Below are positions 10,508-55,603 of a stretch of 64,000 nt of DNA, piece after piece. Both the position numbers and the translations under genes were made by a program. Source of the DNA: Candidatus Kaiserbacteria bacterium (lineage in GTDB: Bacteria; Patescibacteriota; Minisyncoccia; Phycocordibacterales; Phycocordibacteraceae); the NCBI GenBank assembly GCA_963699165.1, contig OY969413.1, forward strand, positions 141,984-205,983, given 5' to 3'. The notes below the pieces were generated by a model. The model was not told where the DNA came from, ran no database searches, and was given only the letters and a program-made list of their open reading frames with translations. Every line of letters starts with the position of its first letter. Position 1 is the stretch's first letter.

Positions 10508-11587
10508 TGTACGCGTCCAGTACTTTTGGCAGTCCCCGACGGTTAATGTACACACAATATACCGCAAGGGGGACACCATGCCGAGCGACTGGTGCGGGCG
10601 TTTGGTGTTGTACCAGATCAGCCAGTCGACAAGCTTCAGATTGAAGGAATGAATATCGTCCCGCAGCAGGCCCCGATTCAGCATGATGAAGTCCTCGGAG
10701 ACGGTGCGATTGAATCGTTCGACGTGGGCATTCATCTTGGGAGTGCGGGGGCGGGTGTGAAAGTGCGTGAGCCCGAGTTCGGCACAGGCATCCTCGAAGT
10801 GTTTGGCGAACTCGCTCCCGTTGTCGGTCTGCAACTCGTCGATATCGAAGGGGCAAACCTCGATGACTCGGCGAAGGAAGTCGTCCGCGCTTCTCGACGA
10901 GTGGTTCGTATACGCGCCCGCAAAGGCGAACTTCCGCTCCACGTCCACTGCCGTGAGGACGTACCGCTTCACGCCGTCGATGAAGCGGACGACGGTATCG
11001 AGCTCCATGCCGCGCTTGCCGGTGCGGCGAAGCTTGGTACGGCGTTTCTGCGGTGTTTCCGTGTGATTGCCCGTACGTGCGTGGAACGAGAGCCGGCTCT
11101 GCTGCGGGAGCAGACCGCGGTTCTTCAAATCCAGAATGACCCGCCCAACGTATGACTCCGACACGGAGTACCCTTCTTCGCGCAGGAGAACGGCAAGCTT
11201 TGCTTTCCCAAGCCGGGGATGCGCCTGTCGTTCGCGGATGATGAAATCCTCGACCTCGGGCAGAACAGTCCTCCTTCGACGCGCCTTCGGCGCAGTGCTC
11301 TTCGGGTCAAGTGCATCAATGCGGCCCTCGTGGGCTTTGAGTTCCTCCTTCCAGCGATACAAGGTGCGCTCCGAGGTGCCAAAGGCGTCGTATGTGGCCT
11401 CCGTCCCGTGCATGTCCCAGAATCCCAATATCTTCACCCGTCTGTCGACTTCCTTTGGTTTCCGCATATGCCGCAATCGTATCGTCCTTTCCCACATGCT
11501 CAACCAGCCCTTCGTACCCCTGAAATTGCTTCTGATGCGCATATATCCTCGGTTATGAGGACTGCCAAATGTATCTGAACTTATGCA
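10508..11587 (-). mobile_element. IS481-family insertion sequence, multi-copy type, copy 1 (1080 bp; ends TGTACGCG...TTATGCA; TSD TGAAG)
   Basis: Identical to copies at 14328, 28564 and 54500. Imperfect terminal IRs share TTTGGCAGTCC. 5-bp direct repeat TGAAG at 10503-10507 and 11588-11592. Sits about 130 bp upstream of cspA. Confidence 0.9.
10509..11542 (-). CDS. IS481-family transposase (HTH + DDE integrase core)
   Basis: 344 aa; MRIRSNFRG ... LDTVVRFIDGVKRYVLTAVDVERKF ... QTDNGSEF ... HFHTRPRTPKMNAHVERFNRTV ... YNTKRPHQSLG. ORF tails after CQKYWTRT differ between copies because they run into flanking DNA. Confidence 0.9.
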
Positions 11588-11601
11588 TGAAGGCGGGGGT
11601 G

Positions 11602-12615
11602 CTACTTCCCGCGGCCGTAGTATTTTTTCAAAAGCGCGACGTGCTCGGCGTAGGTGTCTGAGCAGTGGAATTGATGGTTTGCATCATGAAAATAGAAAAG
11701 ACAGGACGTCTGTATCGGATTGAGAGCGGCAAGAACGGCCGCGACGGAGGGATTTGCAATCGGTCCCGGCGGGAGTCCCGGATTCAAATACGTGTTGTAC
11801 GGCGACTTTTGAGAAATATCTTTCGGTTTTACGGCCGGCCACCAGCTTGTCGTCGTCGGGTTGTTTGCTTTCGCGTACTGTACCGTCGCATCGATTTGCA
11901 GATTCATATTCGCAAAAAGCCGGTTCCAGATAATGCCGGAAATGATGCGCATATCATCCGGTCCGCCCGCTTCGCGCTCGATGAGCGCGGCGACGTTCAG
12001 AGCTTCGCTCATGGGAACGACCTGCTGCGTCGTTGTTCCGTAATGTGAAGCCACGTCTTCGTAAAAACGTTCGTCCAGCATCGTTTCTGCGGCTGCCGGC
12101 GACGCATTGCTGTCGACGAGGTATACGCCCGGCGAAAATGTTCCGTCGGTTACCGAAAGCAACGGATATCCGGCTGTCGCGAGAAAGTCCTCTTTCTGAC
12201 GGTTAGTCCACCCGAGCGAGTCGGCAAACGCTTCGGCAACCTGTTCTTTGCGCATGCCCGGCTGGACGGTTACGAAGCGGCCGTCAACCGCGCCGAGGTT
12301 TTGATACCACGATGCCGAGGCGATTGAGGTTGCAATCCAGTCGAAGACGTACTGAAACACGGTCTGCGCATTCCATGCTGCGGCTTGCAGCGGGGAATTC
12401 GCATCGTCGAGATATGCGTTTACGGTTGGATTTTCGACTATAATCTTTCTTTGCGGATCAACCGTCACGGGAAACTGCTGCGGCGCCGCAGAGACGGTTT
12501 GATTTTGCGTCTGCCGTACGTCAAGCGCGAGCAGCACCGGAACGGAGACGACTCCGCCGACGAGCGCGCCGGTGCCGATAAGAGCGATGCAGGTAAGCGC
12601 GGCAAAGCGCCGCAT
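11602..12615 (-). CDS. mltG: Endolytic murein transglycosylase MltG (YceG-like)
   Basis: N-terminal TM anchor; YNTYLNPGLPPGPIANPSVAAVLAALNP is the YceG signature. Confidence 0.75.
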   Translation of the reverse strand: MRRFAALTCIALIGTGALVGGVVSVPVLLALDVRQTQNQTVSAAPQQFPVTVDPQRKIIVENPTVNAYLDDANSPLQAAAWNAQTVFQYVFDWIATSIASASWYQNLGAVDGRFVTVQPGMRKEQVAEAFADSLGWTNRQKEDFLATAGYPLLSVTDGTFSPGVYLVDSNASPAAAETMLDERFYEDVASHYGTTTQQVVPMSEALNVAALIEREAGGPDDMRIISGIIWNRLFANMNLQIDATVQYAKANNPTTTSWWPAVKPKDISQKSPYNTYLNPGLPPGPIANPSVAAVLAALNPIQTSCLFYFHDANHQFHCSDTYAEHVALLKKYYGRGK

Positions 12616-12710
12616 GTTATTCGGCCGCGCCGTCTTTTTTCGTTCGTTGTGAGGGATGAGTTCCACGGCGGATATTGATTATCTTCATTGTACCCATAAA
12701 ACTCCGATTT

Positions 12711-13343
12711 TTAAACCCGGCGCCGAAAGCCGTGGGAAAGTCCGATGCCTATCAAAAGCCACAACGCGCCGAGTGCATAGCCCGCAACGACATCGCTTGG
12801 GAAATGAACACCGAGATACAGGCGGCTGAATCCGATAGCAAGCATGCCAATCGCCGCGAACGCGAGCACCAGTTTCTTTTTTGCCGGGAAGCGTTCGCAA
12901 AGAAAAAACGCGATAAAGCCGTACAGCGCGACTGCGATGGTCGCGTGTCCGCTCGGGTATGAATACGAGTGCTCAACGACGGTAGGAATGAGGCCGTTCG
13001 GCCGGGCGCGCTCGATAAAATCCTTCATGGCAAGCATTGAAACACCCGCTCCGAAAAGGTTCACCGCAAACCCTGCTTCGTAGGATTTGCGGTGCGGCGC
13101 AAGCAATAGGTAGACGCCGACAATGACCGCAATGCCGGCAACAACGAGCGGATTTCCAAGATAGGTTATCCAGTCGAACACGTTTAAAAGAAACGGCGTG
13201 CGGATGCCGACCATGAAATTCTCAAACGCCGCATCGGCGGTAAGCACAAAGCTGTTCGGCGAGCTCACTGCCGCCGTAAGCGCGGCAAGAAACAATACTA
13301 AACAAGCGCCCGTCCAGCGTGCGGGGAAATGCCGGTCGGTCAT
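12711..13343 (-). CDS. PAP2-family phosphatase (undecaprenyl-diphosphatase / phosphatidic acid phosphatase type)
   Basis: Multi-TM; KDFIERARP ... SYPSGH ... SRLYLGVHFPSDV = PAP2 motifs KxxxxxxRP, PSGH, SRxxxxxHxxxD. Confidence 0.7.
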   Translation of the reverse strand: MTDRHFPARWTGACLVLFLAALTAAVSSPNSFVLTADAAFENFMVGIRTPFLLNVFDWITYLGNPLVVAGIAVIVGVYLLLAPHRKSYEAGFAVNLFGAGVSMLAMKDFIERARPNGLIPTVVEHSYSYPSGHATIAVALYGFIAFFLCERFPAKKKLVLAFAAIGMLAIGFSRLYLGVHFPSDVVAGYALGALWLLIGIGLSHGFRRRV

Positions 13344-13687
13344 AGGTACGGAATGAAAATGAAGCACGCGAGTAGCGCGGCGCAAAGCGCGGTCACGAGA
13401 ACGGCCGCGGCGGAAAGGTCTTTTATTTTTGCGATGTGCGGGTCGTGCGTCGGCTGAAACTTGTCGCAAAGCTCTTCCAGTGCCGTGTTGAAAATCTCGG
13501 CTGCGAGCACGACGCCGATGGTAAGAAGCACTAGCGCAAACTCGAAGGATGACAGTCCGACGAACAGTCCGAGCGCAATGGCAAGCAGGGCACACGCAAT
13601 TTCAATGCGAAAATTATTTCCTTCCCGCCAAGCGATAGTGAGCCCCTTCCATGCATAGCGAAATGATGCGGCTAGCTGTTTCGACAT
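13340..13687 (-). CDS. dgkA: Diacylglycerol/undecaprenol kinase DgkA-like
   Basis: 115 aa, 3 TM; NFRIEIA ... EIFNTALEELCD resembles the prokaryotic DAGK family; 4-bp overlap with PAP2 gene. Confidence 0.6.
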   Translation of the reverse strand: MSKQLAASFRYAWKGLTIAWREGNNFRIEIACALLAIALGLFVGLSSFEFALVLLTIGVVLAAEIFNTALEELCDKFQPTHDPHIAKIKDLSAAAVLVTALCAALLACFIFIPYL

Positions 13688-14318
13688 ATTTTTTAGTATA
13701 CAACGGCCTGCAAACAAACGCTCCCGCGCCGCCCTGGCATATTTTTCACCATCGGTATAAGATGCGCCATTCGTTGGCCGACGCTCTCAAAGCCGGCTAC
13801 CAAGTATACGGTCTAACCGACGAGGGTTACCTCGTCCGCACGCGAACGGACCGCGGATGGGCACTGGCGCTCGCCGTCCTGCGACCCAAGGGTGTGTACG
13901 CCTAGGCCGCCCGCCCCTCATCACTCATTTCTGTAGACCTCCCTAACCGGAGGTCTCATCCTGTAAGGCATACGTTTTCGCCTTTATTTTTTATACTGAA
14001 ACTTTTAGCAAAAAAATAAACCGCCTGTTGAGGCGGTGGGGCATGAGTGGTTATCGTTCTAGGCAGGGGTATAATGATTGTTCGATTCTTTGCACGAATC
14101 TCCTTCGTCGCGCGACAGAGGGTCGAGAGTCCGATGTGCTGCCACCAGGTGGCCGAAGGGACTTTTTCTATTTGGATTGAGAGCGACCTGTCTGCCGCAT
14201 CCCGGGCACTGTGCGGTTTTTACCGCTTCGCTAACCTGCTCTGGTGTAGCATTCACTGTTTTTCCTCCGAAATGGTTTGAGAACTCTGATTCCAAATTAC
14301 ACAATGCCGTAGCGGCAG

Positions 14319-15362
14319 TCAAGTTTTTGTACGCGTCCAGTACTTTTGGCAGTCCCCGACGGTTAATGTACACACAATATACCGCAAGGGGGACACCATG
14401 CCGAGCGACTGGTGCGGGCGTTTGGTGTTGTACCAGATCAGCCAGTCGACAAGCTTCAGATTGAAGGAATGAATATCGTCCCGCAGCAGGCCCCGATTCA
14501 GCATGATGAAGTCCTCGGACACGGTGCGATTGAATCGTTCGACGTGGGCATTCATCTTGGGAGTGCGGGGGCGGGTGTGAAAGTGCGTGAGCCCGAGTTC
14601 GGCACAGGCATCCTCGAAGTGTTTGGCGAACTCGCTCCCGTTGTCGGTCTGCAACTCGTCGATATCGAAGGGGCAAACCTCGATGACTCGGCGAAGGAAG
14701 TCGTCCGCGCTTCTCGACGAGTGGTTCGTATACGCGCCCGCAAAGGCGAACTTCCGCTCCACGTCCACTGCCGTGAGGACGTACCGCTTCACGCCGTCGA
14801 TGAAGCGGACGACGGTATCGAGCTCCATGCCGCGCTTGCCGGTGCGGCGAAGCTTGGTACGGCGTTTCTGCGGTGTTTCCGTGTGATTGCCCGTACGTGC
14901 GTGGAACGAGAGCCGGCTCTGCTGCGGGAGCAGACCGCGGTTCTTCAAATCCAGAATGACCCGCCCAACGTATGACTCCGACACGGAGTACCCTTCTTCG
15001 CGCAGGAGAACGGCAAGCTTTGCTTTCCCAAGCCGGGGATGCGCCTGTCGTTCGCGGATGATGAAATCCTCGACCTCGGGCAGAACAGTCCTCCTTCGAC
15101 GCGCCTTCGGCGCAGTGCTCTTCGGGTCAAGTGCATCAATGCGGCCCTCGTGGGCTTTGAGTTCCTCCTTCCAGCGATACAAGGTGCGCTCCGAGGTGCC
15201 AAAGGCGTCGTATGTGGCCTCCGTCCCGTGCATGTCCCAGAATCCCAATATCTTCACCCGTCTGTCGACTTCCTTTGGTTTCCGCATATGCCGCAATCGT
15301 ATCGTCCTTTCCCACATGCTCAACCAGCCCTTCGTACCCCTGAAATTGCTTCTGATGCGCAT
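14319..15362 (-). CDS. IS481-family transposase (copy 2)
   Basis: Same protein as copy 1; the ORF-track N-terminal extension to 15419 lies outside the element and is not part of it. Confidence 0.85.
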   Translation of the reverse strand: MRIRSNFRGTKGWLSMWERTIRLRHMRKPKEVDRRVKILGFWDMHGTEATYDAFGTSERTLYRWKEELKAHEGRIDALDPKSTAPKARRRRTVLPEVEDFIIRERQAHPRLGKAKLAVLLREEGYSVSESYVGRVILDLKNRGLLPQQSRLSFHARTGNHTETPQKRRTKLRRTGKRGMELDTVVRFIDGVKRYVLTAVDVERKFAFAGAYTNHSSRSADDFLRRVIEVCPFDIDELQTDNGSEFAKHFEDACAELGLTHFHTRPRTPKMNAHVERFNRTVSEDFIMLNRGLLRDDIHSFNLKLVDWLIWYNTKRPHQSLGMVSPLRYIVCTLTVGDCQKYWTRTKT

Positions 15363-15407
15363 ATATCCTCGGTTATGAGGACTGCCAAATGTATCTGAAC
15401 TTATGCA
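14328..15407 (-). mobile_element. IS481-family insertion sequence copy 2 (TSD GTTTT)
   Basis: 1080 bp identical element; GTTTT at 14323-14327 and 15408-15412. Left flank shares 15 nt (CGGCAGTCAAGTTTT) with the flank of the IS fragment at 51752. Confidence 0.9.
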
Positions 15408-15427
15408 GTTTTCCGCCAAAATACGGC

Positions 15428-16495: not shown

Positions 16496-16525
16496 GTGCA
16501 AATAGTAGCACGCAACCAACGGCTG

Positions 16526-17797: not shown

Positions 17798-17852
17798 GCA
17801 ATCATGGTACTACACCCGTTCGGGGAGGCGGACGCACACCTGTTTACAGAAA

Positions 17853-18170: not shown

Positions 18171-18175
18171 ATGAA

Positions 18176-26538: not shown

Positions 26539-27599
26539 GGCGACTAGTCTTTTGAATTCGAACGTTTGATACATTGAGCGAATGAAAAAACCTCCGGCGG
26601 TGCGCACTTCACAAGGTCCGAACGAGACGAAATACAGATACTGTTAGCGAAGGGATACTCTTTGCAAGATGTCGGAGATGCACTCGACCGACCGAAGAGT
26701 GTCATATGGTACGAGACGCAAAAGAAGAGGAAGGGACGGCCGTATGATGCTGCATATGCGCATCACATTTCATACGTACGAAGGAAATACAGCCGAGCGG
26801 TCGGCAAGATGATTGCTCTCGACCCGAAGCTCCGGAAGTTCATCGAGGCGCATCTCTTCGACGATCAGTCGCCCGAAAACATCTCACTTCGATTGAAGCG
26901 GATCGAGAAGGATATCGGATATGCTTCATCCTCGGCTATACGCCGATATATCAAGAGCCCGTATGGCAGACGGATCGAGTCGCATCGAGCAAAGTTATTC
27001 AAGAAGAGGCGACGCTCTCGGCCATCGAAACCACACATTGCCGACAAGCGCCTGATCGACAAACGACCGAGCAAAATCAACAAGCGATGGGGATTGGGTC
27101 ACATGGAGGGCGACTTCATCGTGTCGGGCAAGAGCGGTCAAGGCATCATTCTTGGTCTGCGGGATCGCAGGGTGCGCAAAAACCTGCTGGAGCGGATCCT
27201 GCCAGTGTCAGTGCGAAACGTGGAGCGAGCGCTTCGCAGAATGAAAAAGCGGTATCCCGAGATGCAGACCATCACATTCGACAACGATATTCTCTTTCTC
27301 GAACACAAACGGCTAGAGAAGGTGCTTGGGGTGAAGATATATTTCTGTCATGTGCATGCGCCATGGGAGAAGCCATCAATCGAGAATCTGAACAAGGACT
27401 TGCGGCGGTACATCCCGAAAAGCTCGGATATTTCAAAGTATTCAAAAAGATTTGTGCAGAAACTCGAAGCAAAGATGAATCGCCGCTTCATGGATGTGCT
27501 CGGTTCACTCACGCCAGATGAGGCGTATGCTGCGGAAAAGAAACAACGCGCTCAGAGGAGCGCAAAAAACCGTCGTTCGAATTGAGGGGTTTGGGTGCC
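26539..27599 (+). mobile_element. IS30-family insertion sequence copy A (1061 bp, TSD CGC)
   Basis: Identical to copies at 35958..37018 and 46880..47940 (both minus). Ends GGCGACTAGTCTTTTGAATTCGAACG / CGTTCGAATTGAGGGGTTTGGGTGCC form imperfect IRs. CGC at 26536-38 and 27600-02. Confidence 0.85.
26662..27585 (+). CDS. IS30-family transposase
   Basis: 307 aa; N-terminal HTH, DDE core HMEGDFIVSGKS ... ITFDNDILF ... CHVHAPWEKPSIENLNKDLRRY. Confidence 0.9.
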   Translation: MQDVGDALDRPKSVIWYETQKKRKGRPYDAAYAHHISYVRRKYSRAVGKMIALDPKLRKFIEAHLFDDQSPENISLRLKRIEKDIGYASSSAIRRYIKSPYGRRIESHRAKLFKKRRRSRPSKPHIADKRLIDKRPSKINKRWGLGHMEGDFIVSGKSGQGIILGLRDRRVRKNLLERILPVSVRNVERALRRMKKRYPEMQTITFDNDILFLEHKRLEKVLGVKIYFCHVHAPWEKPSIENLNKDLRRYIPKSSDISKYSKRFVQKLEAKMNRRFMDVLGSLTPDEAYAAEKKQRAQRSAKNRRSN

Positions 27600-28162: not shown

Positions 28163-28489
28163 TTAAAGGAACGATTCTGCTCTCGTACTTTCCCGCACGC
28201 GGTCAATTATGGCATCGATATGCGGTGCTGCCGCCAGTAGAACCTTTCTTATGATATCGACGGAGACACCCGGGATTATGATTTGGAACATCTGAATTGG
28301 TCCATCTTGTCTCGGATTCCGACTTCCGAGAAATGGAACTGCTTCTCCGTCCTCGAAAACCCAATCTCGTTTCCGGTGATTGACCTTGACCCCGTTCGGA
28401 GTACCAATCGTAACCGAGAAACTTCCGCCTCTGCGGCATAACCAGATTTCGACCGCCGTGTCTGTGTGCGTATGACTCATCTGCATCAA
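28163..28489 (-). CDS. Hypothetical protein
   Basis: 108-aa ORF, no motif. Confidence 0.3.
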   Translation of the reverse strand: MMQMSHTHTDTAVEIWLCRRGGSFSVTIGTPNGVKVNHRKRDWVFEDGEAVPFLGSRNPRQDGPIQMFQIIIPGVSVDIIRKVLLAAAPHIDAIIDRVRESTRAESFL

Positions 28490-28554
28490 TTTCTACCCCG
28501 ATGTATCGACGACCAATCGCGTCTGAGCCGACTATACTACAACCGTCGCATTTG

Positions 28555-29598
28555 TCAGCGACATGTACGCGTCCAGTACTTTTGGCAGTCCCCGACGGTT
28601 AATGTACACACAATATACCGCAAGGGGGACACCATGCCGAGCGACTGGTGCGGGCGTTTGGTGTTGTACCAGATCAGCCAGTCGACAAGCTTCAGATTGA
28701 AGGAATGAATATCGTCCCGCAGCAGGCCCCGATTCAGCATGATGAAGTCCTCGGAGACGGTGCGATTGAATCGTTCGACGTGGGCATTCATCTTGGGAGT
28801 GCGGGGGCGGGTGTGAAAGTGCGTGAGCCCGAGTTCGGCACAGGCATCCTCGAAGTGTTTGGCGAACTCGCTCCCGTTGTCGGTCTGCAACTCGTCGATA
28901 TCGAAGGGGCAAACCTCGATGACTCGGCGAAGGAAGTCGTCCGCGCTTCTCGACGAGTGGTTCGTATACGCGCCCGCAAAGGCGAACTTCCGCTCCACGT
29001 CCACTGCCGTGAGGACGTACCGCTTCACGCCGTCGATGAAGCGGACGACGGTATCGAGCTCCATGCCGCGCTTGCCGGTGCGGCGAAGCTTGGTACGGCG
29101 TTTCTGCGGTGTTTCCGTGTGATTGCCCGTACGTGCGTGGAACGAGAGCCGGCTCTGCTGCGGGAGCAGACCGCGGTTCTTCAAATCCAGAATGACCCGC
29201 CCAACGTATGACTCCGACACGGAGTACCCTTCTTCGCGCAGGAGAACGGCAAGCTTTGCTTTCCCAAGCCGGGGATGCGCCTGTCGTTCGCGGATGATGA
29301 AATCCTCGACCTCGGGCAGAACAGTCCTCCTTCGACGCGCCTTCGGCGCAGTGCTCTTCGGGTCAAGTGCATCAATGCGGCCCTCGTGGGCTTTGAGTTC
29401 CTCCTTCCAGCGATACAAGGTGCGCTCCGAGGTGCCAAAGGCGTCGTATGCGGCCTCCGTCCCGTGCATGTCCCAGAATCCCAATATCTTCACCCGTCTG
29501 TCGACTTCCTTTGGTTTCCGCATATGCCGCAATCGTATCGTCCTTTCCCACATGCTCAACCAGCCCTTCGTACCCCTGAAATTGCTTCTGATGTGCAT
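28555..29598 (-). CDS. IS481-family transposase (copy 3)
   Basis: Same protein; one M-to-H substitution near N-terminus (MHIRSNFRG). Confidence 0.85.
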   Translation of the reverse strand: MHIRSNFRGTKGWLSMWERTIRLRHMRKPKEVDRRVKILGFWDMHGTEAAYDAFGTSERTLYRWKEELKAHEGRIDALDPKSTAPKARRRRTVLPEVEDFIIRERQAHPRLGKAKLAVLLREEGYSVSESYVGRVILDLKNRGLLPQQSRLSFHARTGNHTETPQKRRTKLRRTGKRGMELDTVVRFIDGVKRYVLTAVDVERKFAFAGAYTNHSSRSADDFLRRVIEVCPFDIDELQTDNGSEFAKHFEDACAELGLTHFHTRPRTPKMNAHVERFNRTVSEDFIMLNRGLLRDDIHSFNLKLVDWLIWYNTKRPHQSLGMVSPLRYIVCTLTVGDCQKYWTRTCR

Positions 29599-29643
29599 AT
29601 ATCCTCGGTTATGAGGACTGCCAAATGTATCTGAACTTATGCA
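28564..29643 (-). mobile_element. IS481-family insertion sequence copy 3 (TSD CGACA)
   Basis: CGACA at 28559-28563 and 29644-29648; inserted about 50 bp upstream of tsaC start. Confidence 0.9.
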
Positions 29644-29696
29644 CGACAACGTGTTGGACGCGGGACAATTTCCTCACATCTGATATGTTTTCTGGA

Positions 29697-35957: not shown

Positions 35958-37018
35958 GGCACCCAAACCCCTCAATTCGAACGACGGTTTTTTGCGCTCC
36001 TCTGAGCGCGTTGTTTCTTTTCCGCAGCATACGCCTCATCTGGCGTGAGTGAACCGAGCACATCCATGAAGCGGCGATTCATCTTTGCTTCGAGTTTCTG
36101 CACAAATCTTTTTGAATACTTTGAAATATCCGAGCTTTTCGGGATGTACCGCCGCAAGTCCTTGTTCAGATTCTCGATTGATGGCTTCTCCCATGGCGCA
36201 TGCACATGACAGAAATATATCTTCACCCCAAGCACCTTCTCTAGCCGTTTGTGTTCGAGAAAGAGAATATCGTTGTCGAATGTGATGGTCTGCATCTCGG
36301 GATACCGCTTTTTCATTCTGCGAAGCGCTCGCTCCACGTTTCGCACTGACACTGGCAGGATCCGCTCCAGCAGGTTTTTGCGCACCCTGCGATCCCGCAG
36401 ACCAAGAATGATGCCTTGACCGCTCTTGCCCGACACGATGAAGTCGCCCTCCATGTGACCCAATCCCCATCGCTTGTTGATTTTGCTCGGTCGTTTGTCG
36501 ATCAGGCGCTTGTCGGCAATGTGTGGTTTCGATGGCCGAGAGCGTCGCCTCTTCTTGAATACCTTTGCTCGATGCGACTCGATCCGTCTGCCATACGGGC
36601 TCTTGATATATCGGCGTATAGCCGAGGATGAAGCATATCCGATATCCTTCTCGATCCGCTTCAATCGAAGTGAGATGTTTTCGGGCGACTGATCGTCGAA
36701 GAGATGCGCCTCGATGAACTTCCGGAGCTTCGGGTCGAGAGCAATCATCTTGCCGACCGCTCGGCTGTATTTCCTTCGTACGTATGAAATGTGATGCGCA
36801 TATGCAGCATCATACGGCCGTCCCTTCCTCTTCTTTTGCGTCTCGTACCATATGACACTCTTCGGTCGGTCGAGTGCATCTCCGACATCTTGCAAAGAGT
36901 ATCCCTTCGCTAACAGTATCTGTATTTCGTCTCGTTCGGACCTTGTGAAGTGCGCACCGCCGGAGGTTTTTTCATTCGCTCAATGTATCAAACGTTCGAA
37001 TTCAAAAGACCAGTCGCC
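35958..37018 (-). mobile_element. IS30-family insertion sequence copy B (TSD AAA on plus strand)
   Basis: AAA at 35955-57 and 37019-21; inverted relative to copy A. Confidence 0.85.
35972..36895 (-). CDS. IS30-family transposase (copy B)
   Basis: Same 307-aa protein with one K/V substitution (RAKVFKK). Confidence 0.9.
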   Translation of the reverse strand: MQDVGDALDRPKSVIWYETQKKRKGRPYDAAYAHHISYVRRKYSRAVGKMIALDPKLRKFIEAHLFDDQSPENISLRLKRIEKDIGYASSSAIRRYIKSPYGRRIESHRAKVFKKRRRSRPSKPHIADKRLIDKRPSKINKRWGLGHMEGDFIVSGKSGQGIILGLRDRRVRKNLLERILPVSVRNVERALRRMKKRYPEMQTITFDNDILFLEHKRLEKVLGVKIYFCHVHAPWEKPSIENLNKDLRRYIPKSSDISKYSKRFVQKLEAKMNRRFMDVLGSLTPDEAYAAEKKQRAQRSAKNRRSN

Positions 37019-46879: not shown

Positions 46880-47940
46880 GGCACCCAAACCCCTCAATTC
46901 GAACGACGGTTTTTTGCGCTCCTCTGAGCGCGTTGTTTCTTTTCCGCAGCATACGCCTCATCTGGCGTGAGTGAACCGAGCACATCCATGAAGCGGCGAT
47001 TCATCTTTGCTTCGAGTTTCTGCACAAATCTTTTTGAATACTTTGAAATATCCGAGCTTTTCGGGATGTACCGCCGCAAGTCCTTGTTCAGATTCTCGAT
47101 TGATGGCTTCTCCCATGGCGCATGCACATGACAGAAATATATCTTCACCCCAAGCACCTTCTCTAGCCGTTTGTGTTCGAGAAAGAGAATATCGTTGTCG
47201 AATGTGATGGTCTGCATCTCGGGATACCGCTTTTTCATTCTGCGAAGCGCTCGCTCCACGTTTCGCACTGACACTGGCAGGATCCGCTCCAGCAGGTTTT
47301 TGCGCACCCTGCGATCCCGCAGACCAAGAATGATGCCTTGACCGCTCTTGCCCGACACGATGAAGTCGCCCTCCATGTGACCCAATCCCCATCGCTTGTT
47401 GATTTTGCTCGGTCGTTTGTCGATCAGGCGCTTGTCGGCAATGTGTGGTTTCGATGGCCGAGAGCGTCGCCTCTTCTTGAATAACTTTGCTCGATGCGAC
47501 TCGATCCGTCTGCCATACGGGCTCTTGATATATCGGCGTATAGCCGAGGATGAAGCATATCCGATATCCTTCTCGATCCGCTTCAATCGAAGTGAGATGT
47601 TTTCGGGCGACTGATCGTCGAAGAGATGCGCCTCGATGAACTTCCGGAGCTTCGGGTCGAGAGCAATCATCTTGCCGACCGCTCGGCTGTATTTCCTTCG
47701 TACGTATGAAATGTGATGCGCATATGCAGCATCATACGGCCGTCCCTTCCTCTTCTTTTGCGTCTCGTACCATATGACACTCTTCGGTCGGTCGAGTGCA
47801 TCTCCGACATCTTGCAAAGAGTATCCCTTCGCTAACAGTATCTGTATTTCGTCTCGTTCGGACCTTGTGAAGTGCGCACCGCCGGAGGTTTTTTCATTCG
47901 CTCAATGTATCAAACGTTCGAATTCAAAAGACCAGTCGCC
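46880..47940 (-). mobile_element. IS30-family insertion sequence copy C (imperfect TSD)
   Basis: Identical 1061 bp; flanks give TTG/GTG (2 of 3) in element orientation; about 28 bp upstream of the KGG gene start. Confidence 0.85.
46894..47817 (-). CDS. IS30-family transposase (copy C)
   Basis: Identical to copy A protein. Confidence 0.9.
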   Translation of the reverse strand: MQDVGDALDRPKSVIWYETQKKRKGRPYDAAYAHHISYVRRKYSRAVGKMIALDPKLRKFIEAHLFDDQSPENISLRLKRIEKDIGYASSSAIRRYIKSPYGRRIESHRAKLFKKRRRSRPSKPHIADKRLIDKRPSKINKRWGLGHMEGDFIVSGKSGQGIILGLRDRRVRKNLLERILPVSVRNVERALRRMKKRYPEMQTITFDNDILFLEHKRLEKVLGVKIYFCHVHAPWEKPSIENLNKDLRRYIPKSSDISKYSKRFVQKLEAKMNRRFMDVLGSLTPDEAYAAEKKQRAQRSAKNRRSN

Positions 47941-48252: not shown

Positions 48253-48256
48253 GGCG

Positions 48257-48290: not shown

Positions 48291-48350
48291 AACCAAAAAC
48301 AAAGAAATCCGCCTTGCGGCGGACTTCATTTTTTGTTTTGTCATGATAGG

Positions 48351-49653: not shown

Positions 49654-49765
49654 ACGATTTATTTTAGAGAAACGGGTTTGTAATTCTGCCTGAAAGCATA
49701 CAGCGCGCTATATCGGGTCAAGGCAAACTATGGTATAATATATGTGAAAATAACATTAATTAAAT

Positions 49766-50443: not shown

Positions 50444-50596
50444 TAGACGTAGGAATCCTTCACGACCGGCACATCTTTTGCAAGGATTTGTGCAATACGA
50501 ACCGCATCGTCGAACTATATTTTTTCTTAAATCAAAACTCATTTTGGTTGAGATAAAATTCACCGCTTACTGCGATATCAATAACACAAAAACGCC

Positions 50597-50998
50597 ATGA
50601 GCAACCGACCCATACATTTTGAAGTTCAGGCCGATGATGCGGCGCGGGCAAAGACCTTTTACGAAAATGCCCTCGGCTGGAAAATCGAGAAATCGAAACT
50701 GCCCGAGGTTGGCATGGATTACTGGATGGTGATGACGGGCGAAGGGCCGGGAATAGACGGCGGATTGTATGAGCGGAAGGATAACCCGTTGCGAAAAATT
50801 ACAAGCTTCGACTGCACGATACTTGTCGATGATATTGATGCGGTGATTGCCGCGGTAAAGAACAACGGCGGCAGCGTCGAGCCGTGGGAGGGAAAAGAGA
50901 AATGGGAAATGAAAGGCATCGGCTGGTTCTCGCGCGCGACAGACACCGAAGGCAATGTGTTCGGTTTGCTTCAAGCCACCGATTGGAAGCCGGAGTGA
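50597..50998 (+). CDS. VOC-family (glyoxalase/bleomycin-resistance fold) protein
   Basis: PIHFEVQADDAARAKTFYENALGWKIE .. GGSVEPWEG. Confidence 0.65.
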   Translation: MSNRPIHFEVQADDAARAKTFYENALGWKIEKSKLPEVGMDYWMVMTGEGPGIDGGLYERKDNPLRKITSFDCTILVDDIDAVIAAVKNNGGSVEPWEGKEKWEMKGIGWFSRATDTEGNVFGLLQATDWKPE

Positions 50999-51160
50999 GC
51001 GTGAGCGGAAGCGAGCGTATTTGCTAAAATTGCCCGATGACCAAAAATAATTGCCGGCGGCATTGTTTGCATAAAAGAAAACCGCCCCTTCATCGCCCCT
51101 TCATCGTACTGAAGGGGCAGGTGTTAGGGCGGACGACGTAGCCCGATGCGGTTCGAGGTC

Positions 51161-51442
51161 TCATGGGGCACGTTTTTCGGCCATCAAATTTTCCTCCATG
51201 TCCTCAAGCGTCCGAAGTAAATCCTTGATGGAGAACTCGCAGTTCCTAAAGTCGGCCCCTCGTGACGCGACCCTCAGGGATTTAAGAGAAAAGGTTTGCG
51301 TTTCCCAATGCTCTTCACCTTTCCGGTCCCGATAGAGGAATTCAAGGTCCACTACGGGAACTCGAGCGAGGGTTGTGATTCGGGTGCCGAGATGAATCGC
51401 GGAAACAGCGGTCGCGTTCGTAGGTTTGTGTCCCCGACGCAT
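51161..51442 (-). CDS. Hypothetical protein (93 aa)
   Basis: ORF followed downstream (lower coordinates) by a hairpin and T-run, and by a tandem 11-bp repeat CCCCTTCATCG x2. Confidence 0.3.
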   Translation of the reverse strand: MRRGHKPTNATAVSAIHLGTRITTLARVPVVDLEFLYRDRKGEEHWETQTFSLKSLRVASRGADFRNCEFSIKDLLRTLEDMEENLMAEKRAP

Positions 51443-51751
51443 TGAAACCTCCTTTGCGAAAGAGCAACTTACAGGCGGAGCATTTCATAATTCATGGCAT
51501 CGGTCAATCTTGCCGTAATGGTTCAATCTCGGAGTCGTATTGGGGAAAAATTAAGTCGATTGAATATAAAAGACCGAGGCGCTATGTCCTCGGACTTGAG
51601 CCAGTTGCTGCACAGCAGTTTTACTTCCGTCCGGTGGAAAAGATAAAAACACCGGCGTCATCAGTTCACCGCCCAAGCAGCAACCCCTGTCATCTTTGTA
51701 CTTCGGTGCTCGCAAAGATACTACAGAAACTCAAAACGGCAGTCAAGTTTT

Positions 51752-51895
51752 TGTACGCGTCCAGTACTTTTGGCAGTCCCCGACGGTTAATGTACACACA
51801 ATATACCGCAAGGGGGACACCATGCCGAGCGACTGGTGCGGGCGTTTGGTGTTGTACCAGATCAGCCAGTCGACAAGCTTCAGATTGAAGGAATG
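51752..51895 (-). mobile_element. 144-bp fragment (transposase-stop end) of the multi-copy IS481 element, truncated by the IS3 element
   Basis: Identical to the first 144 bp of the full copies; diverges exactly where the IS3 inverted repeat begins. Confidence 0.85.
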
Positions 51896-51923
51896 TACCG
51901 ACCCCTATTCTTCAGACCACTTC

Positions 51924-52736
51924 CTAGACGAGTGAAGATAGTGTACGGGTGATGTGCGATTTCGCAAACTCTCTCGGTGCCATCTTGAGTGTTGAGTGTA
52001 TACGCACGGTGTTGTACCGGTGAATTGTCTGATAGATTTCAGCAACAAGTTCACCAAGCGTATCGAAGCGATTGGGATCGCCCAGATCAGTTTTGAATTT
52101 TCCATAGAACGATTCTTGGTACCCGTTCTCCCACGGACAGCCCTTTTTTGAGCGAGAGATGCTGATGCCGAAATTGATGAGCATCTCTCGGAAGGATGCG
52201 GCATTGTATTCCACTCCGTTGTCGCTGTGAAAGATGGTGGGACGAGGATGGTTGAGAAGTGCCGCGCACAATGCCTGCGTCACAAGTACGGTTCCACCTC
52301 GCGTACCAATGGCGAGCCCAACGACACTTCGAGTGTATACGTCCATGGTGGTTGCCACACGAATGTCTTTCCCTTTGAAATACACATGAGTGAAATCAGC
52401 GACCCATGCTTGATGCGGATAGGCGGGTACAATCCGCATCAGGAGATTTGGATACTCCACGGCTTGTTTCCTTGATTTCCTCCACCGTCTTCCTCTTCTT
52501 CGATATGCTTTGATACCAAAGAGTCGCATGACTCTTTGAACCTTCTTTTTGTTCTCCTTGAGATACAGGGCAACTCTCCGGTATCCATACGAAGGAAACT
52601 CTCGAAGGACTTCTTCAATACGGCATTTGAGTGCCCAGTCTTTGTCAGGCTTCTTCTTTTGATACCAGAAGGTGGAACGAGCTATACCAAGAGTACGCGC
52701 TGTTGTGCGCGTACCAATCGGAGATTCTTTGCTCAC
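51924..52736 (-). CDS. IS3-family transposase OrfB (DDE integrase core)
   Basis: WVADFTHVY ... HSDNGVEY ... GCPWENGYQESFYGKFKTD. Confidence 0.85.
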   Translation of the reverse strand: MSKESPIGTRTTARTLGIARSTFWYQKKKPDKDWALKCRIEEVLREFPSYGYRRVALYLKENKKKVQRVMRLFGIKAYRRRGRRWRKSRKQAVEYPNLLMRIVPAYPHQAWVADFTHVYFKGKDIRVATTMDVYTRSVVGLAIGTRGGTVLVTQALCAALLNHPRPTIFHSDNGVEYNAASFREMLINFGISISRSKKGCPWENGYQESFYGKFKTDLGDPNRFDTLGELVAEIYQTIHRYNTVRIHSTLKMAPREFAKSHITRTLSSLV

Positions 52737-52990
52737 TTCTTTTTTTGGGTTTCAGACAGCTTGAGCGTCATGAGTCCAACAAGACGAAGGAGTTCGTCAT
52801 TCTCTTTTCGAAGTCTCGCAATCTCAAGAACAGATGCGGTACCGTCTTGCACTTTCGCACCAAGCCAGCCATAGATGGTGGTCTCGTGGATACCATGCTC
52901 TTTGGCCGCTTGGGCGACAGTGACACCATCGTTCTTGATTCGATTAATGATTTGTTCCTTCACCTCAGGAGCGATGCGGTATTGCTTCAT
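52733..52990 (-). CDS. IS3-family transposase OrfA (HTH)
   Basis: 85 aa; KEQIINRIKNDGVTVAQAAKEHGIHETTIYGW HTH, leucine-zipper tail; overlaps orfB by 4 bp in the -1 frame. Confidence 0.8.
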   Translation of the reverse strand: MKQYRIAPEVKEQIINRIKNDGVTVAQAAKEHGIHETTIYGWLGAKVQDGTASVLEIARLRKENDELLRLVGLMTLKLSETQKKK

Positions 52991-53037
52991 ATGACGTCAT
53001 TCTAGCGGTTAATCCCGTCTAGAACATGGTCTGAAAT

Positions 53038-54387
53038 TTGGGGGTCAGGTCAGATGCAGGAGAGATAACCTATATGATACGCACGGGTGTCATTGAAGAC
53101 CTCAAGCTCGCCGCCTATCATTTTGAAAACACGCCCGAGGGTATTTGGATGCTTCAAATGGCACTCTCACAATCTCAATACGAAAGCGCAAAGAAGGGGC
53201 GCGATGTGAAGCGTGGACTTATGCAGAAAGCAAAAATGGGTGTTTATCCTGCGCCCGCGTCCATCGGCTATATGAATGACAAGCACGCCGAAAAGGGATA
53301 CAAGACCATCCACGCGGACCCCGAACGCTTTGACATCGTGCGGAAGATGTTTGACCTGATGCTCGCAGGTGCGCATACGCCACCGCGTATTTTGGAGATT
53401 GCGACGAAAGAGTGGGAGCTACGGATGCCGAAAGGAAAACCTTTGAGCCGAAGCAATGTCTATCTGCTTTTTACACGCGAGTTCTACTACGGCGAGTTTG
53501 AGTACCCTGTAGGAAGCGGCAACTGGCACAAAGGCGTCCATAAGCCGATGATTACGCGCGAGGAGTTTGACCGCATACAAGTATTGCTCGGCAGGAGAAG
53601 CAACCCACGCCAGAAACGGCACGAGATTATGTATCGCGGTCCGATAAAGTGTGGCGAGTGCGGCTGTATGATTACTGCCGAGGAAAAAACGAAGTATCAG
53701 AAAAACGGCAATAAGCACGATTACACCTACTATCATTGCACCAAGCGTAGGGACCCGAACTGCAAGCAACCCCCGATTGAAGAAGCCGAGCTTGAAAAGC
53801 AGATTGCCAAAGAGGTTGGCTCTATAGAGATACCCGAGGACTTCACAAAATGGGCTCTGGCACGCCTTCGGGAGATGAATACGCAGGAGGTATCTGACCG
53901 AGACCGCATCTACGGCTCGCAGAGGCGCGAATACGAGGGATGTGTGCGTAAGATAGATAACCTCATTGATATGCGTGCCAATAACGAACTCACAGAGGAT
54001 GAGTTCAAGGGCAGAAAGCAAACACTCCTTGCTGAAAAGGAGCGACTTGCCTCACTGCTCAAGGATACTGACAAGCGCGTAGAGAACTGGCTTGAGATTG
54101 CCGAGCGCGGTTTCAACTTTGCAGAGAAAGCGGCGGCTATTTTTGCCGAAGCGAAGGAGAATGACGACATTGAGACGCGCAAAGAGATTTTTGCCTCATT
54201 AGGTTCGGACCTCATCTTGAAAGACAAAATACTAAGCATTGACTGGGATAATCTGCTGTTCCCGATACAAACAATGGCAAAAGAAGTCCGCGCCGTTCAC
54301 GCAGAGTTAGAACCTGTAGAAAACTCAGTAAATACAAAGGATTATGGCGAACTCTACTCTCAAAATCCTATCTTGCTCCGGCGGTAG
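53038..54387 (+). pseudogene. N-terminally truncated large serine recombinase (Recombinase domain + zinc-ribbon + coiled coil; resolvase catalytic domain missing)
   Basis: GVYPAPASIGYMNDKHAEKGYKTIHADPERFDIVRKMFDLMLAGAHTPPRILEIATKEWELRMPKGKPLSRSNVYLLFTREFYYGEFEY is the Recombinase domain (PF07508 type). CGECGCMITAEEKTKYQKNGNKHDYTYYHCTKRR is the zinc ribbon. The ORF begins inside the IS3 right end, so the Ser catalytic domain is absent. The 3' end overlaps the tRNA-Asn 3' end. Confidence 0.65.
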
Positions 54388-54447
54388 GATTCGAACCTAC
54401 AACCAACGCCTTAACAGGGCGCTGCTCTACCATTGAGCTACACCGGA
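54376..54447 (-). tRNA. tRNA-Asn (anticodon GUU)
   Basis: Reverse complement reads TCCGGTG ta GCTC AATGGTA GAGC a GCGCC CTGTTAA GGCGT tggtt GTAGG TTCGAAT CCTAC CGCCGGA g: 7-bp acceptor, D-arm, anticodon loop CUGUUAA, T-arm with TTCGAAT. Confidence 0.8.
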
Positions 54448-54481
54448 ATATATAGCGAACTTATGCATTCTAACCGAAAAA

Positions 54482-55534
54482 TCATAGTCCGCAATGGTAT
54501 GTACGCGTCCAGTACTTTTGGCAGTCCCCGACGGTTAATGTACACACAATATACCGCAAGGGGGACACCATGCCGAGCGACTGGTGCGGGCGTTTGGTGT
54601 TGTACCAGATCAGCCAGTCGACAAGCTTCAGATTGAAGGAATGAATATCGTCCCGCAGCAGGCCCCGATTCAGCATGATGAAGTCCTCGGAGACGGTGCG
54701 ATTGAATCGTTCGACGTGGGCATTCATCTTGGGAGTGCGGGGGCGGGTGTGAAAGTGCGTGAGCCCGAGTTCGGCACAGGCATCCTCGAAGTGTTTGGCG
54801 AACTCGCTCCCGTTGTCGGTCTGCAACTCGTCGATATCGAAGGGGCAAACCTCGATGACTCGGCGAAGGAAGTCGTCCGCGCTTCTCGACGAGTGGTTCG
54901 TATACGCGCCCGCAAAGGCGAACTTCCGCTCCACGTCCACTGCCGTGAGGACGTACCGCTTCACGCCGTCGATGAAGCGTACGACGGTATCGAGCTCCAT
55001 GCCGCGCTTGCCGGTGCGGCGAAGCTTGGTACGGCGTTTCTGCGGTGTTTCCGTGTGATTGCCCGTACGTGCGTGGAACGAGAGCCGGCTCTGCTGCGGG
55101 AGCAGACCGCGGTTCTTCAAATCCAGAATGACCCGCCCAACGTATGACTCCGACACGGAGTACCCTTCTTCGCGCAGGAGAACGGCAAGCTTTGCTTTCC
55201 CAAGCCGGGGATGCGCCTGTCGTTCGCGGATGATGAAATCCTCGACCTCGGGCAGAACAGTCCTCCTTCGACGCGCCTTCGGCGCAGTGCTCTTCGGGTC
55301 AAGTGCATCAATGCGGCCCTCGTGGGCTTTGAGTTCCTCCTTCCAGCGATACAAGGTGCGCTCCGAGGTGCCAAAGGCGTCGTATGTGGCCTCCGTCCCG
55401 TGCATGTCCCAGAATCCCAATATCTTCACCCGTCTGTCGACTTCCTTTGGTTTCCGCATATGCCGCAATCGTATCGTCCTTTCCCACATGCTCAACCAGC
55501 CCTTCGTACCCCTGAAATTGCTTCTGATGCGCAT
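54482..55534 (-). CDS. IS481-family transposase (copy 4)
   Basis: Same protein, one D-to-Y substitution (VDEAYDGIEL on opposite-frame shadow corresponds to a single nt change). Confidence 0.85.
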   Translation of the reverse strand: MRIRSNFRGTKGWLSMWERTIRLRHMRKPKEVDRRVKILGFWDMHGTEATYDAFGTSERTLYRWKEELKAHEGRIDALDPKSTAPKARRRRTVLPEVEDFIIRERQAHPRLGKAKLAVLLREEGYSVSESYVGRVILDLKNRGLLPQQSRLSFHARTGNHTETPQKRRTKLRRTGKRGMELDTVVRFIDGVKRYVLTAVDVERKFAFAGAYTNHSSRSADDFLRRVIEVCPFDIDELQTDNGSEFAKHFEDACAELGLTHFHTRPRTPKMNAHVERFNRTVSEDFIMLNRGLLRDDIHSFNLKLVDWLIWYNTKRPHQSLGMVSPLRYIVCTLTVGDCQKYWTRTYHCGL

Positions 55535-55579
55535 ATATCCTCGGTTATGAGGACTGCCAAATGTATCTGAACTTATGCA
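54500..55579 (-). mobile_element. IS481-family insertion sequence copy 4 (TSD TGGTA)
   Basis: TGGTA at 54495-54499 and 55580-55584; inserted 52 bp from the tRNA. Confidence 0.9.
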
Positions 55580-55603
55580 TGGTAGAATATGCGCGGCAGA
55601 CAT

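Follow-up and report, generated by a model that had tools for sequence, protein, structure and literature searches.

A recently active insertion sequence (IS) of the IS481 family, found in the ~1-Mb genome of a Kaiserbacteria-like member of the Patescibacteria, very probably integrates in one direction only, 5 bp upstream of promoter -35 hexamers. Four full copies of 1080 bp, all in one common orientation, lie on the minus strand of the window, i.e., the whole stretch of 64,000 nucleotides that was analysed. Sequence comparison placed copy 1 at 10508-11587, copy 2 at 14328-15407, copy 3 at 28564-29643 and copy 4 at 54500-55579. The sequence-only reading had reported that each copy has its own perfect 5-bp direct repeat, and this was confirmed: the target-site duplications (TSDs), which all adjoin the 1080-bp unit, are TGAAG (10503-10507 and 11588-11592), GTTTT (14323-14327 and 15408-15412), CGACA (28559-28563 and 29644-29648) and TGGTA (54495-54499 and 55580-55584). 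It had also called the four copies identical; their number, coordinates and length stood, but strict identity did not, as 0-2 SNPs separate the copies. Relative to copy 1, copy 2 carries one SNP (position 193) and copy 4 another (position 481), both synonymous, and copy 3 carries two (888 and 1031), which are nonsynonymous (R2H and T50A). With at most 2 SNPs per 1080 bp in a base-by-base alignment, every flanking repeat present and four different perfect duplications, the proposed recent and independent transposition was borne out. Perfect 5-bp duplications also flank the element in 10 metagenome loci and in three loci from complete records (L083, L095 and L086).

The ends of the element had been given as TGTACGCG...TTATGCA, which was correct. 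The termini are of the TG..CA type (TGTACG... and ...TTATGCA), and the ends common to its relatives are TGCATAAGTTCA... and ...TGGACnnGTACA. The terminal inverted repeats are imperfect and 28 nt long, with 21 of 28 positions matching and one gap; in copy 1 the repeat at the transposase-distal end (TGTACGCGTCCAGTACTTTTGGCAGTCC) occupies 10508-10535 on the plus strand and its partner 11559-11587. Neither of the two 28-29-nt terminal sequences was matched in 100 shuffles of the window. The single truncated copy previously noticed was recovered as well (51752-51895, minus strand): it comprises 144 bp of the transposase-distal end, is 100% identical to the full-copy end over this length, and is cut short by an IS3-family element (51894-53052). 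IS DNA, three families together, makes up 13.8% of the window.

The transposase is encoded by a single open reading frame that runs for 345 codons from its ATG to the element end without a stop and without a programmed frameshift. Its product matched the Pfam domains rve (45.8 bits), rve_3 (59 bits) and HTH_32 (38.9 bits), all over the cut-off. The alignment shows no variation at D182, D240 and E275, and the predicted fold resembles the cores of retroviral integrase and IstA. Among the NCBIfam models the best family was IS481 (NF033577), with 181.6 bits, which is below the curated cut-off of 224, followed by IS3 (NF033516), with 93 bits against a cut-off of 160, and the nearest annotated relatives, at ~36% identity, are labelled 'IS481 family / ISKpn28'. 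Membership of the IS3 family was rejected, since there is one reading frame instead of two overlapping ones joined by a -1 frameshift and the IS3 score is below the cut-off. The element is best placed as a distant IS481-family IS, in line with the family named in the sequence-only reading. It shares with the family this frameshift-free organization and a length of ~1.0-1.1 kb. IS481 of Bordetella and ISLxc2 and ISLxx4 of Leifsonia have TGT..ACA-type ends and a short target duplication, which in the family ranges from 2 to 15 bp and is mostly 6 bp (PMC10045372).

The transposase gene fills the element, so compactly that the terminal repeat doubles as coding sequence for the conserved C-terminus ...CQKYWTRT. 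At the other end a conserved hairpin, GUCCUC-AUAACC-GAGGAU (11545-11562, minus strand, and equivalent positions in the other three copies), pairs the Shine-Dalgarno-like GAGGA located 3 nt ahead of the transposase ATG.

The sequence-only reading missed that the insertion sites are, to all appearances in the flanks, not arbitrary. Next to copy 1 a promoter is predicted at 10474-10502 on the minus strand (-35 TTGACA, 10502-10497; 17-bp spacer; -10 TACTCT, 10479-10474), and downstream of it lies cspA (Pfam CSD; 10169-10378, minus strand). At copy 2 the predicted promoter (14294-14322, minus strand) consists of TTGACT (14322-14317), a 17-bp spacer and TAATTT (14299-14294), and is followed by a small Cys-containing ORF on the same strand, which has GGAGGA 7 nt ahead of a GTG start and ends at 14059. 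The predicted promoter at copy 3 (28531-28558, minus strand; CTGACA, 28558-28553; 16-bp spacer; TATAGT, 28536-28531) precedes a 108-aa ORF (28163-28489, minus strand). That at copy 4 (54467-54494, minus strand; TTGCGG, 54494-54489; 16-bp spacer; TAGAAT, 54472-54467) is separated by 19 nt from the downstream tRNA-Asn (54375-54447, minus strand). At two of the four full copies, then, the hexamer is imperfect (CTGACA at copy 3 and TTGCGG at copy 4). The flank of the partial copy reads AAAAC, TTGACT (51746-51741), 17 bp and TAGTAT (51723-51718), also on the minus strand.

All four window insertions retain the predicted core promoter. The distances that had been proposed from the IS to its neighbours proved accurate: ~130 bp to cspA (129 nt to its ATG at 10378), 52 bp to tRNA-Asn (52 nt to its 5′ end at 54447) and ~50 bp to tsaC (41 nt from the other IS end to the first tsaC ATG outside the IS). 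Judged from these predicted promoters, the proximity of the IS to cspA and tRNA-Asn is not incidental, and their core promoters would be left intact and are not obviously disrupted, because the transposase-distal end lies 5 bp upstream of the -35 hexamer. The only named gene whose upstream region is, as far as the annotation goes, really displaced is tsaC (Sua5/YrdC domain; start ~29685, plus strand), which diverges from the transposase-proximal end of copy 3.

The same arrangement was observed in the flanks of 76 non-redundant (independent) relatives, 52-76% identical and mostly from groundwater metagenomes. On the transposase-distal side TTGAC was present exactly at +6 to +10 in 58 of the 76. 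In a sequence logo of 74 non-redundant flanks the duplicated positions +1 to +5 carried <0.13 bit, positions +6 to +11 read T.95 T.93 G.92 A.84 C.84 A.59, and positions +29 to +34 read T.63 A.71 nnn T.71. TAnnnT followed TTGAC at a spacer of 16, 17 or 18 bp in 10, 30 and 8 flanks, respectively, which accounted for 45 of 51 TTGAC sites (88%), and control offsets gave 1-6 of 51. A properly spaced -10 was also kept in 11 of the 16 flanks with an imperfect hexamer. The distal flank has the order N5 (the duplication), TTGACA, ~17 bp and TAnnnT, i.e., a complete predicted sigma-70-type promoter, and the transposase-proximal flank showed no motif, with 25 nt that never exceeded 0.15 bit. Downstream genes are co-directional with the transposase both in the window and in the loci with tuf, rpoB and secE; those in the relatives' loci comprise secE-nusG-rplK, tuf, rpoB (twice), an RRM protein and a pilin-like gene. 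An identical 5-bp/-35 geometry was found in an element on a Campylobacterota plasmid and in ISKpn28. Within the window, which has 121 TTGAC pentamers, 3 of the 12 TTGAC-N16-18-TAnnnT sites are occupied by the IS.

The hexamer also supplies the transposase stop codon. The IS has none of its own, one frame being open across all 360 codons, and the TGA within T-TGA-CA ends the transposase two codons beyond the element. The minus-strand reading frames accordingly run from the ATG at 11542-11540 to a TGA outside the element at 10501-10499 (copy 1), from 15362 to 14321-14319 (copy 2) and from 29598 to 28557-28555 (copy 3). In copy 4 (start 55534) the frame extends to the TGA at 54484-54482, with a 5-aa tail, because TTGCGG has TGC instead of a stop. 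A stop at the third codon was found in 62 of the 76 non-redundant flanks, and homologues with long tails often have Cys or Trp there (TGC/TGT/TGG). Half of a more distant set (22 of 43 representatives at 33-62% identity) likewise end exactly 2 residues after ...WTRT. In ISKpn28 the frame extends by at least 13 codons because its hexamers have no TGA. As the IS has no stop codon of its own, read-through ORF calls contaminate protein clusters. The 90%-identity cluster of the transposase contains translation factor IF-3 sequences.

Since a frame without its own stop needs one, and intergenic sites are expected to be tolerated, insertion might in principle be random, the flank pattern reflecting the survival of copies that have a nearby stop and disrupt no gene. 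We consider this very improbable, as it is contradicted by the flank logo. Geometric tail lengths would be predicted, with ~4% at exactly 2 codons, yet a tail of exactly 2 residues beyond ...WTRT is present in 90 of 106 homologous proteins (85%); the T at +6 and the C at +10, both outside the stop codon, are conserved like the stop itself; the phasing is exact to the nucleotide; and the other flank carries no signal. The ends of many ISs carry promoters or -35 boxes that face outward, and TTGACA-N17-TAnnnT could be such a mobile promoter of the element, whose true end would then be further out. This has hardly any likelihood. The 5-bp duplication lies between element and hexamer in every verified case (14 of 64 loci, among them all four of the window, plus the three complete-record loci); the spacer and -10 sequences are wholly different between copies of the source genome; and an empty ISKpn28 site (L094) carries CCTCC-TTGCAA, so that the hexamer was present before the insertion. 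For the window copies no empty counterpart came up, and two further loci (L084 and L085) carry the same insertion. Least probable of all is that the copies arose by segmental duplication or misassembly without transposition. The partial copy and copy 2 do have 15 nt of flank in common, but identity between the full copies breaks off exactly where the 1080-bp unit ends, each unit has a perfect 5-bp duplication of its own, and two independent assemblies contain the same IS-cspA junction.

A more serious alternative accepts the same pattern and has a protein lead the element to its target, the transposase being tethered to promoter-bound RNA polymerase holoenzyme (e.g., through the alpha C-terminal domain or sigma region 4 at the -35 box), much as Ty3 is recruited by TFIIIB or as suggested for an IS1202-Xer interaction. 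It would fit the correctly spaced -10 of 88% of TTGAC sites, 25-30 bp from the insertion point, and its retention at 11 of 16 sites with degenerate hexamers. Furthermore, with TTGCAA and TTGCCT at ISKpn28 and TTGCGG at window copy 4, the promoter rather than one pentamer would be the common feature, and conservation within the hexamer falls in the order TTG > A, C > A, in parallel with the known sigma-70 preference at -35 boxes. Against tethering, the hexamer (0.84-0.95) is much better conserved than usual -35 boxes and its distance to the IS is fixed to the nucleotide, so that direct readout is the simplest account; selection against intragenic insertions in gene-dense ~1-Mb genomes could alone enrich real promoters, and any interaction surface would be hypothetical. 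We therefore regard it as rather unlikely that this widespread IS481-type clade targets via promoter-bound RNA polymerase or sigma, and not by DNA sequence alone. If it did, Ty3-style recruitment would have its counterpart in a bacterial DDE enzyme, the insertions would show where promoters are active in bacteria that have not been cultivated, and the system might lend itself to placing DNA near promoters.

In the model that we favor, integration would be aimed at the upstream edge of sigma-70-type promoters with the -35 hexamer as reference, and the recognizing entity would most likely be the transposase-DNA complex at the distal end, by direct readout of the hexamer. Purifying selection in a gene-dense genome would then clear insertions at TTGAC sites outside promoters. 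Because the core promoter survives, the site would be a low-cost safe haven, and it would also be a source of the stop codon. There is no terminator at the element end, so transcription through the IS may continue into the downstream gene, and in transcripts that read into the element, translation is probably held down by the conserved hairpin over the ribosome-binding site. If the IS3 and IS1202 families are taken as a guide, transposition would proceed by copy-out-paste-in via a circular intermediate.

The target specificity is not absolute. A relative on an E. coli plasmid has a flank without a -35-like sequence, some ISKpn28 copies have rearranged flanks, and with colistin as the selecting agent ISKpn28 has been reported within the mgrB reading frame (PMC6101004). 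The duplication is seen in no more than about a quarter of the metagenome loci, several long-contig loci being without one; where it is missing we assume collapsed-repeat assembly or recombination between copies. From natural copies alone, targeting is inseparable from post-insertion selection.

In the IS481 family the insertion site is known to supply the transposase stop codon (PMC2516522). The classical members duplicate 6 bp at the palindrome NCTAGN, with the stop (TAG) inside the duplication, whereas the element described here duplicates 5 bp without sequence preference and its recognized motif is one-sided, lies outside the duplication and equals a -35 box. Assignment to the NCTAGN subgroup was rejected on the TSDs (TGAAG, GTTTT, CGACA and TGGTA) and on the five positions of <0.13 bit in the logo. 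The ISAba32 subgroup of the IS1202 family, a related DDE lineage, also has a fixed direction of insertion, places one of its ends exactly 5 bp from a XerCD site and makes a 5-bp duplication; the site may be recognized via protein or via DNA, and a safe-haven role was proposed (bioRxiv 10.1101/2022.12.17.520857). Both elements thus keep a fixed 5-bp offset from a protein-binding site, but the target is xrs/dif in that subgroup and a promoter here, and the abutting end is transposase-proximal (IRL) there and transposase-distal here. Membership was rejected on the insertion site, the abutting motif being TTGACA-N17-TAnnnT at the transposase-distal end; the transposases of the IS1202 family have signatures of their own. 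IS870 and IS630-type elements, in which a CTAG target creates the stop of a transposase gene that has none, differ in transposase family and have a palindromic TA/CTAG target with no promoter element. Safe havens are also used by Ty3 at Pol III start sites, Tn7 at attTn7 and group IIC introns at terminators, and IS900 inserts between the ribosome-binding site and the start codon. Insertion is likewise referenced to a gene-expression signal, with coding sequence spared and orientation fixed, but the enzymes and mechanisms are different. ISKpn28, from Klebsiella plasmids and chromosomes, has the ~36% identical transposase with a same-type ...MWWTHT end derived from the terminal repeat. In two different hok/sok loci its distal end precedes TTGCAA-17-CATACT and TTGCCT-17-TACTCT by 5 bp, an arrangement that the empty site bears out. 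Intergenic positions make up 59% of its distinct insertion sites (PMC5343135, Table 2), and we found no published statement on its target preference.

It is rare for a simple DDE transposase that acts as a single protein to integrate with both sequence and orientation specified. To our knowledge the -35 hexamer has not been named as the reference point of any bacterial DDE IS, and as far as we could find, neither insertion directed to -35 boxes nor a target that such a box defines has been described in print. Such targeting would explain how an IS can spread through a 1-Mb genome packed with genes and yet spare them. It also goes with extreme compaction, the element being one ORF whose C-terminus is encoded by the terminal repeat and whose stop codon is given by the host -35 box. 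The flanks of these elements are a ready catalogue of predicted promoters for uncultivated Patescibacteria, and ISKpn28 on clinical Klebsiella plasmids, which is experimentally tractable, may have the same targeting.

The four full IS481-type elements of the window (10508, 14328, 28564 and 54500; copies 1-4) lie in one orientation. The sequence-only reading had taken them as strictly identical, whereas relative to copy 1 we found differences at 1 position in copy 2, 2 in copy 3 and 1 in copy 4, two of the nucleotide changes being synonymous and two residue-changing (both in copy 3). The 1080-bp boundaries marked the exact limit of identity among the copies. The perfect 5-bp direct repeat reported for each copy (TGAAG, GTTTT, CGACA and TGGTA) was confirmed, and so was a truncated fifth copy at 51752-51895, which retains 144 bp of the same end, is cut short by an IS3-family element (51894-53052) and shares the orientation of the other four. 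The assignment to the IS481 family also held, with NCBIfam IS481 as the best model and IS481/ISKpn28 elements as annotated kin. The finding stands, as does its classification; taken alone it would be ordinary. The 15 nt flanking copy 2 (14313-14327) are also found beside the partial copy (51737-51751; cggcagtcaagtttt, + strand); the target motif described below accounts for only 5 of these 15 nt, and beyond them the two flanks are wholly different.

Other mobile elements are present in the window. An IS30-family IS of 1061 bp (NCBIfam IS30, 168 bits; cut-off 80) occurs in three near-identical copies, at 26539-27599 (+), 35958-37018 (-) and 46880-47940 (-). The IS3-family element (1159 bp, with orfB at 51924-52736 on the minus strand) lies between the truncated IS481-like copy and the ORF of a 5′-truncated large serine recombinase (53038-54387) and abuts both. 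That ORF terminates within the 3′ end of tRNA-Asn, the only Rfam match in the window, and the region 51894-54447 resembles the remains of an element that had integrated at this tRNA gene. Together, the three IS families contribute 8806 bp (13.8%) of the window.

On the minus strand, a single frame is open over all 1080 bp of the IS481-type element (360 codons), and from an ATG at element position 46 it specifies a protein of 345 residues with HTH_32, rve and rve_3 domains, in which D182, D240 and E275 do not vary among relatives. NCBIfam IS481 was the top match (181.6 bits, under the curated cut-off of 224), followed by IS3 at 93 bits. In the AlphaFold model (pLDDT 71), the N-terminal part forms two helical modules for DNA binding, followed by a basic, disordered linker and a core of the integrase type; a fold search with this model returned retroviral integrases and IS21 IstA, nothing beyond the expected integrase-like fold. 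The ends of the element are TGTACG... and ...TTATGCA, with imperfect inverted repeats of 28 nt. The closest annotated kin are "IS481 family / ISKpn28" transposases (~36% identity). Unlike IS3-family elements, the Kaiserbacteria element lacks a frameshift architecture, and unlike classical IS481 members it lacks the NCTAGN target; it may be filed, on these features, as a distant IS481-family member. The scan of species-representative genomes gave one relative, in a Candidatus Kaiserbacteria MAG (70% identity), and cluster mates of the transposase are named as Minisyncoccia and Patescibacteria.

The DNA just beyond the transposase-distal end, i.e., the end that faces the host promoter, was aligned for 80 related metagenome loci (transposases 52-76% identical) and for complete-genome loci; this yielded 74 non-redundant flanks, or 76 with two complete-genome loci added. 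In the set of 74, positions +1 to +5, which correspond to the duplication, carried no information, positions +6 to +11 read T (.95), T (.93), G (.92), A (.84), C (.84), A (.59), and positions +29 to +34 read T (.63), A (.71), nnn, T (.71). An exact TTGAC was present at +6 to +10 in 58 of 76 non-redundant flanks. A TAnnnT followed at a 16-18-bp spacer in 45 of the 51 TTGAC flanks with enough sequence, against 1-6 of 51 at control offsets, and the cases with spacers of 16, 17 and 18 bp numbered 10, 30 and 8, respectively. Imperfect hexamers (TTGCCA, TTGTCA, CTGACA, TTGCGG and others) were still accompanied by a properly spaced -10 in 11 of 16 flanks. The 25 nt of the opposite flank carried ≤0.15 bit at every position. 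A hexamer with a spaced -10 on one flank indicates that the motif is a complete, one-sided sigma-70-type promoter, and insertion is, as judged from these flanks, phased to the -35 hexamer at nucleotide precision. The window contains 121 TTGAC pentamers, only 12 of them with a spaced TAnnnT, and 3 of those 12 are occupied. At other loci the co-directional downstream genes included secE-nusG-rplK, tuf, rpoB (two loci), an RRM protein gene and a pilin-like gene; strong consensus promoters are expected for genes of this kind.

All the promoters flanking the window copies read on the minus strand. Copy 1, inserted 129 nt upstream of cspA, is followed by CTTCA-TTGACA-17-TACTCT, and before insertion the mltG stop codon was 14 nt from this -35 box. 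The promoter-scan tool made no call at the cspA promoter because TACTCT agrees at only 3/6 positions. The flank of copy 2 is AAAAC-TTGACT-17-TAATTT, after which GGAGGA-N7-GTG starts a small ORF, and that of the partial copy is AAAAC-TTGACT-17-TAGTAT. Copy 3 (TGTCG-CTGACA-16-TATAGT) lies upstream of a 108-aa ORF, and copy 4 (TACCA-TTGCGG-16-TAGAAT) 19 nt upstream of tRNA-Asn. The tsaC gene (Sua5/YrdC) is divergent, at the opposite end of copy 3, and its upstream region past about -47 has been displaced, so that it is the one neighbour whose promoter may truly be affected. No terminator-like site was found at the element end, and hence transcription from the IS through to cspA or tRNA-Asn would be possible. 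The identical IS-cspA junction was also present in two other assemblies; both break inside the IS, and the empty site for copy 1 was not found. A SET-domain protein gene (window 9685-10128; Pfam SET, from the identical neighbour in L084, one of the assemblies with this junction) adjoins cspA.

Several lines of evidence show that the hexamer belongs to the host rather than to the element. A perfect 5-bp duplication separates the element from the hexamer in 4/4 window copies, in ten metagenome loci and in L083 and L095, two loci of GCA_037200965.1; it was missing in three quarters of the metagenome loci, several on long contigs among them. A Nitrosophilus plasmid element (37% identical) has the arrangement AATAA / IS / AATAA-TTGACT-18-TAAAAT. 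Within one genome, the spacer and -10 sequences are wholly different from copy to copy. For ISKpn28 an empty site is available in MK649828.1 (...ggtttact-CCTCC-TTGCAAATTGCACGG...), and its occupied counterpart is ...ggtttact-CCTCC / IS / ACTCC-TTGCAA.... The annotation of a Hok CDS and an Rfam match (sok) place this site in a regulatory region of the hok/sok type, and ISKpn28 inserted independently, in the same arrangement, at a second, diverged hok/sok locus (TCTCC-TTGCCT-17-TACTCT). In the hok/sok loci of the Klebsiella plasmids (L088, L089 and L094), 5 bp separate ISKpn28 from a promoter-like hexamer downstream, and the start codon of hok is 14 nt away; L088 has an additional ~320-bp duplicated 5′ fragment of ISKpn28. 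ISKpn28 is not strictly confined to promoters (PMC6101004), as the flanks examined here also indicated. The 960-kb genome GCA_037200965.1 carries two copies, L082 and L083, at different promoters with the same pentamer, GCTGC, beside the hexamer; L082 has ACCGC on its other flank and lacks a perfect duplication. Recombination between copies or an inherited donor flank could account for the shared pentamer. General inheritance of the hexamer-adjacent 5 nt from donor copies was rejected, since pentamers were shared by 6 pairs of loci against 4.0 +/- 2.0 expected by chance (p ~0.2).

The open frame of the transposase runs out of the element. In copies 1-3 it terminates at a TGA two codons beyond, and in copy 4 five codons beyond. 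Among the 106 homologues with the ...WTRT motif, 90 have a tail of exactly two variable residues after it (~4% expected for random flanks), and in many of the exceptions the third codon differs from TGA by one base and specifies Cys or Trp. The end motif is kept by 43 representatives of 50%-identity clusters (identity with the query, 33-62%), and 22 of the 43 still show the 2-residue tail. The transposase stop is, as read from these junctions, the TGA within T-TGA-CA of the -35 hexamer, and the out-of-element stop codon is a trait of the family. IS481-family elements that target NCTAGN were already known to take their stop codon from the insertion site, with the stop placed inside the duplication (PMC2516522). 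A 99%-identical transposase (P0001) has the two substitutions of copy 3, but its tail is RA, so that it represents a further full copy beyond the four of the window. Sequences of translation initiation factor IF-3 also fall in the 90%-identity protein cluster of P0001, likely drawn in by a read-through ORF call in which the stop-less transposase was joined to a downstream infC.

At its 5′ end, the element encodes a conserved, covarying hairpin (window 11545-11562, with equivalents in the other copies and in loci L001-L081, the related elements), in which a Shine-Dalgarno-like GAGGA, 3-5 nt ahead of the ATG, forms the 3′ arm. Consensus folding of the 5′ ends (RNAalifold, MAFFT alignment) gave no structure, the arms being misaligned; when the 65 distinct sequences were folded one by one, 62 reached ≤-4 kcal/mol (mean z = -3.0). 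The arms covary as CUCCUC/GAGGAG, CUCAGU/ACUGAG, CUCGGAC/GUCUGAG and CUCCGC/GCGGAG, among others. Upstream genes stop 14 nt (copy 1) and 20 nt (copy 2) short of the element, and the hairpin probably guards against translation of transcripts entering from such genes.

The flanks show, as a pattern, that insertion is one-sided and phased to the -35 hexamer; for the mode of recognition we propose that the transposase complex would read the hexamer directly, while selection against intragenic insertions in compact genomes would add promoter bias. This combination is placed first, because the phasing is nucleotide-exact and the hexamer is conserved well above ordinary -35 boxes. Alternatively, the target could be found by tethering to promoter-bound polymerase or sigma; the very high share of sites with a proper -10 and the insertions at variant hexamers would fit such a route, but that share could be inflated by the same selection against intragenic insertions, and we consider tethering rather unlikely. 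The flank logo, the duplications and the empty site contradict two further readings, pure selection and a promoter that travels with the element. A promoter formed at a junction of the two ends (TGGACG at one, TAAGTT at the other) was discarded, given a spacing of ~15 bp and a TAAGTT not kept as TAnnnT in relatives, and no real tandem copy or circle junction, which would read distal end, few nt, proximal end, was found. The target as a mimic of the terminal repeat was likewise discarded: TGGAC or TGAAC in the repeat resembles TTGAC only loosely, and ISKpn28 and the Patescibacteria elements showed no covariation.

In geometry, the nearest precedent comes from the IS1202 family: elements of its ISAba32 subgroup insert in a fixed direction, 5 bp away from XerCD sites, and duplicate 5 bp. 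In the papers searched there was no description of an IS directed to the -35 hexamer, and -35-phased insertion seems to be a form of IS481 behaviour not described before. As a pattern in the loci compared, family-wide insertion phased to the -35 hexamer, which also supplies the transposase with its stop codon, is well supported.
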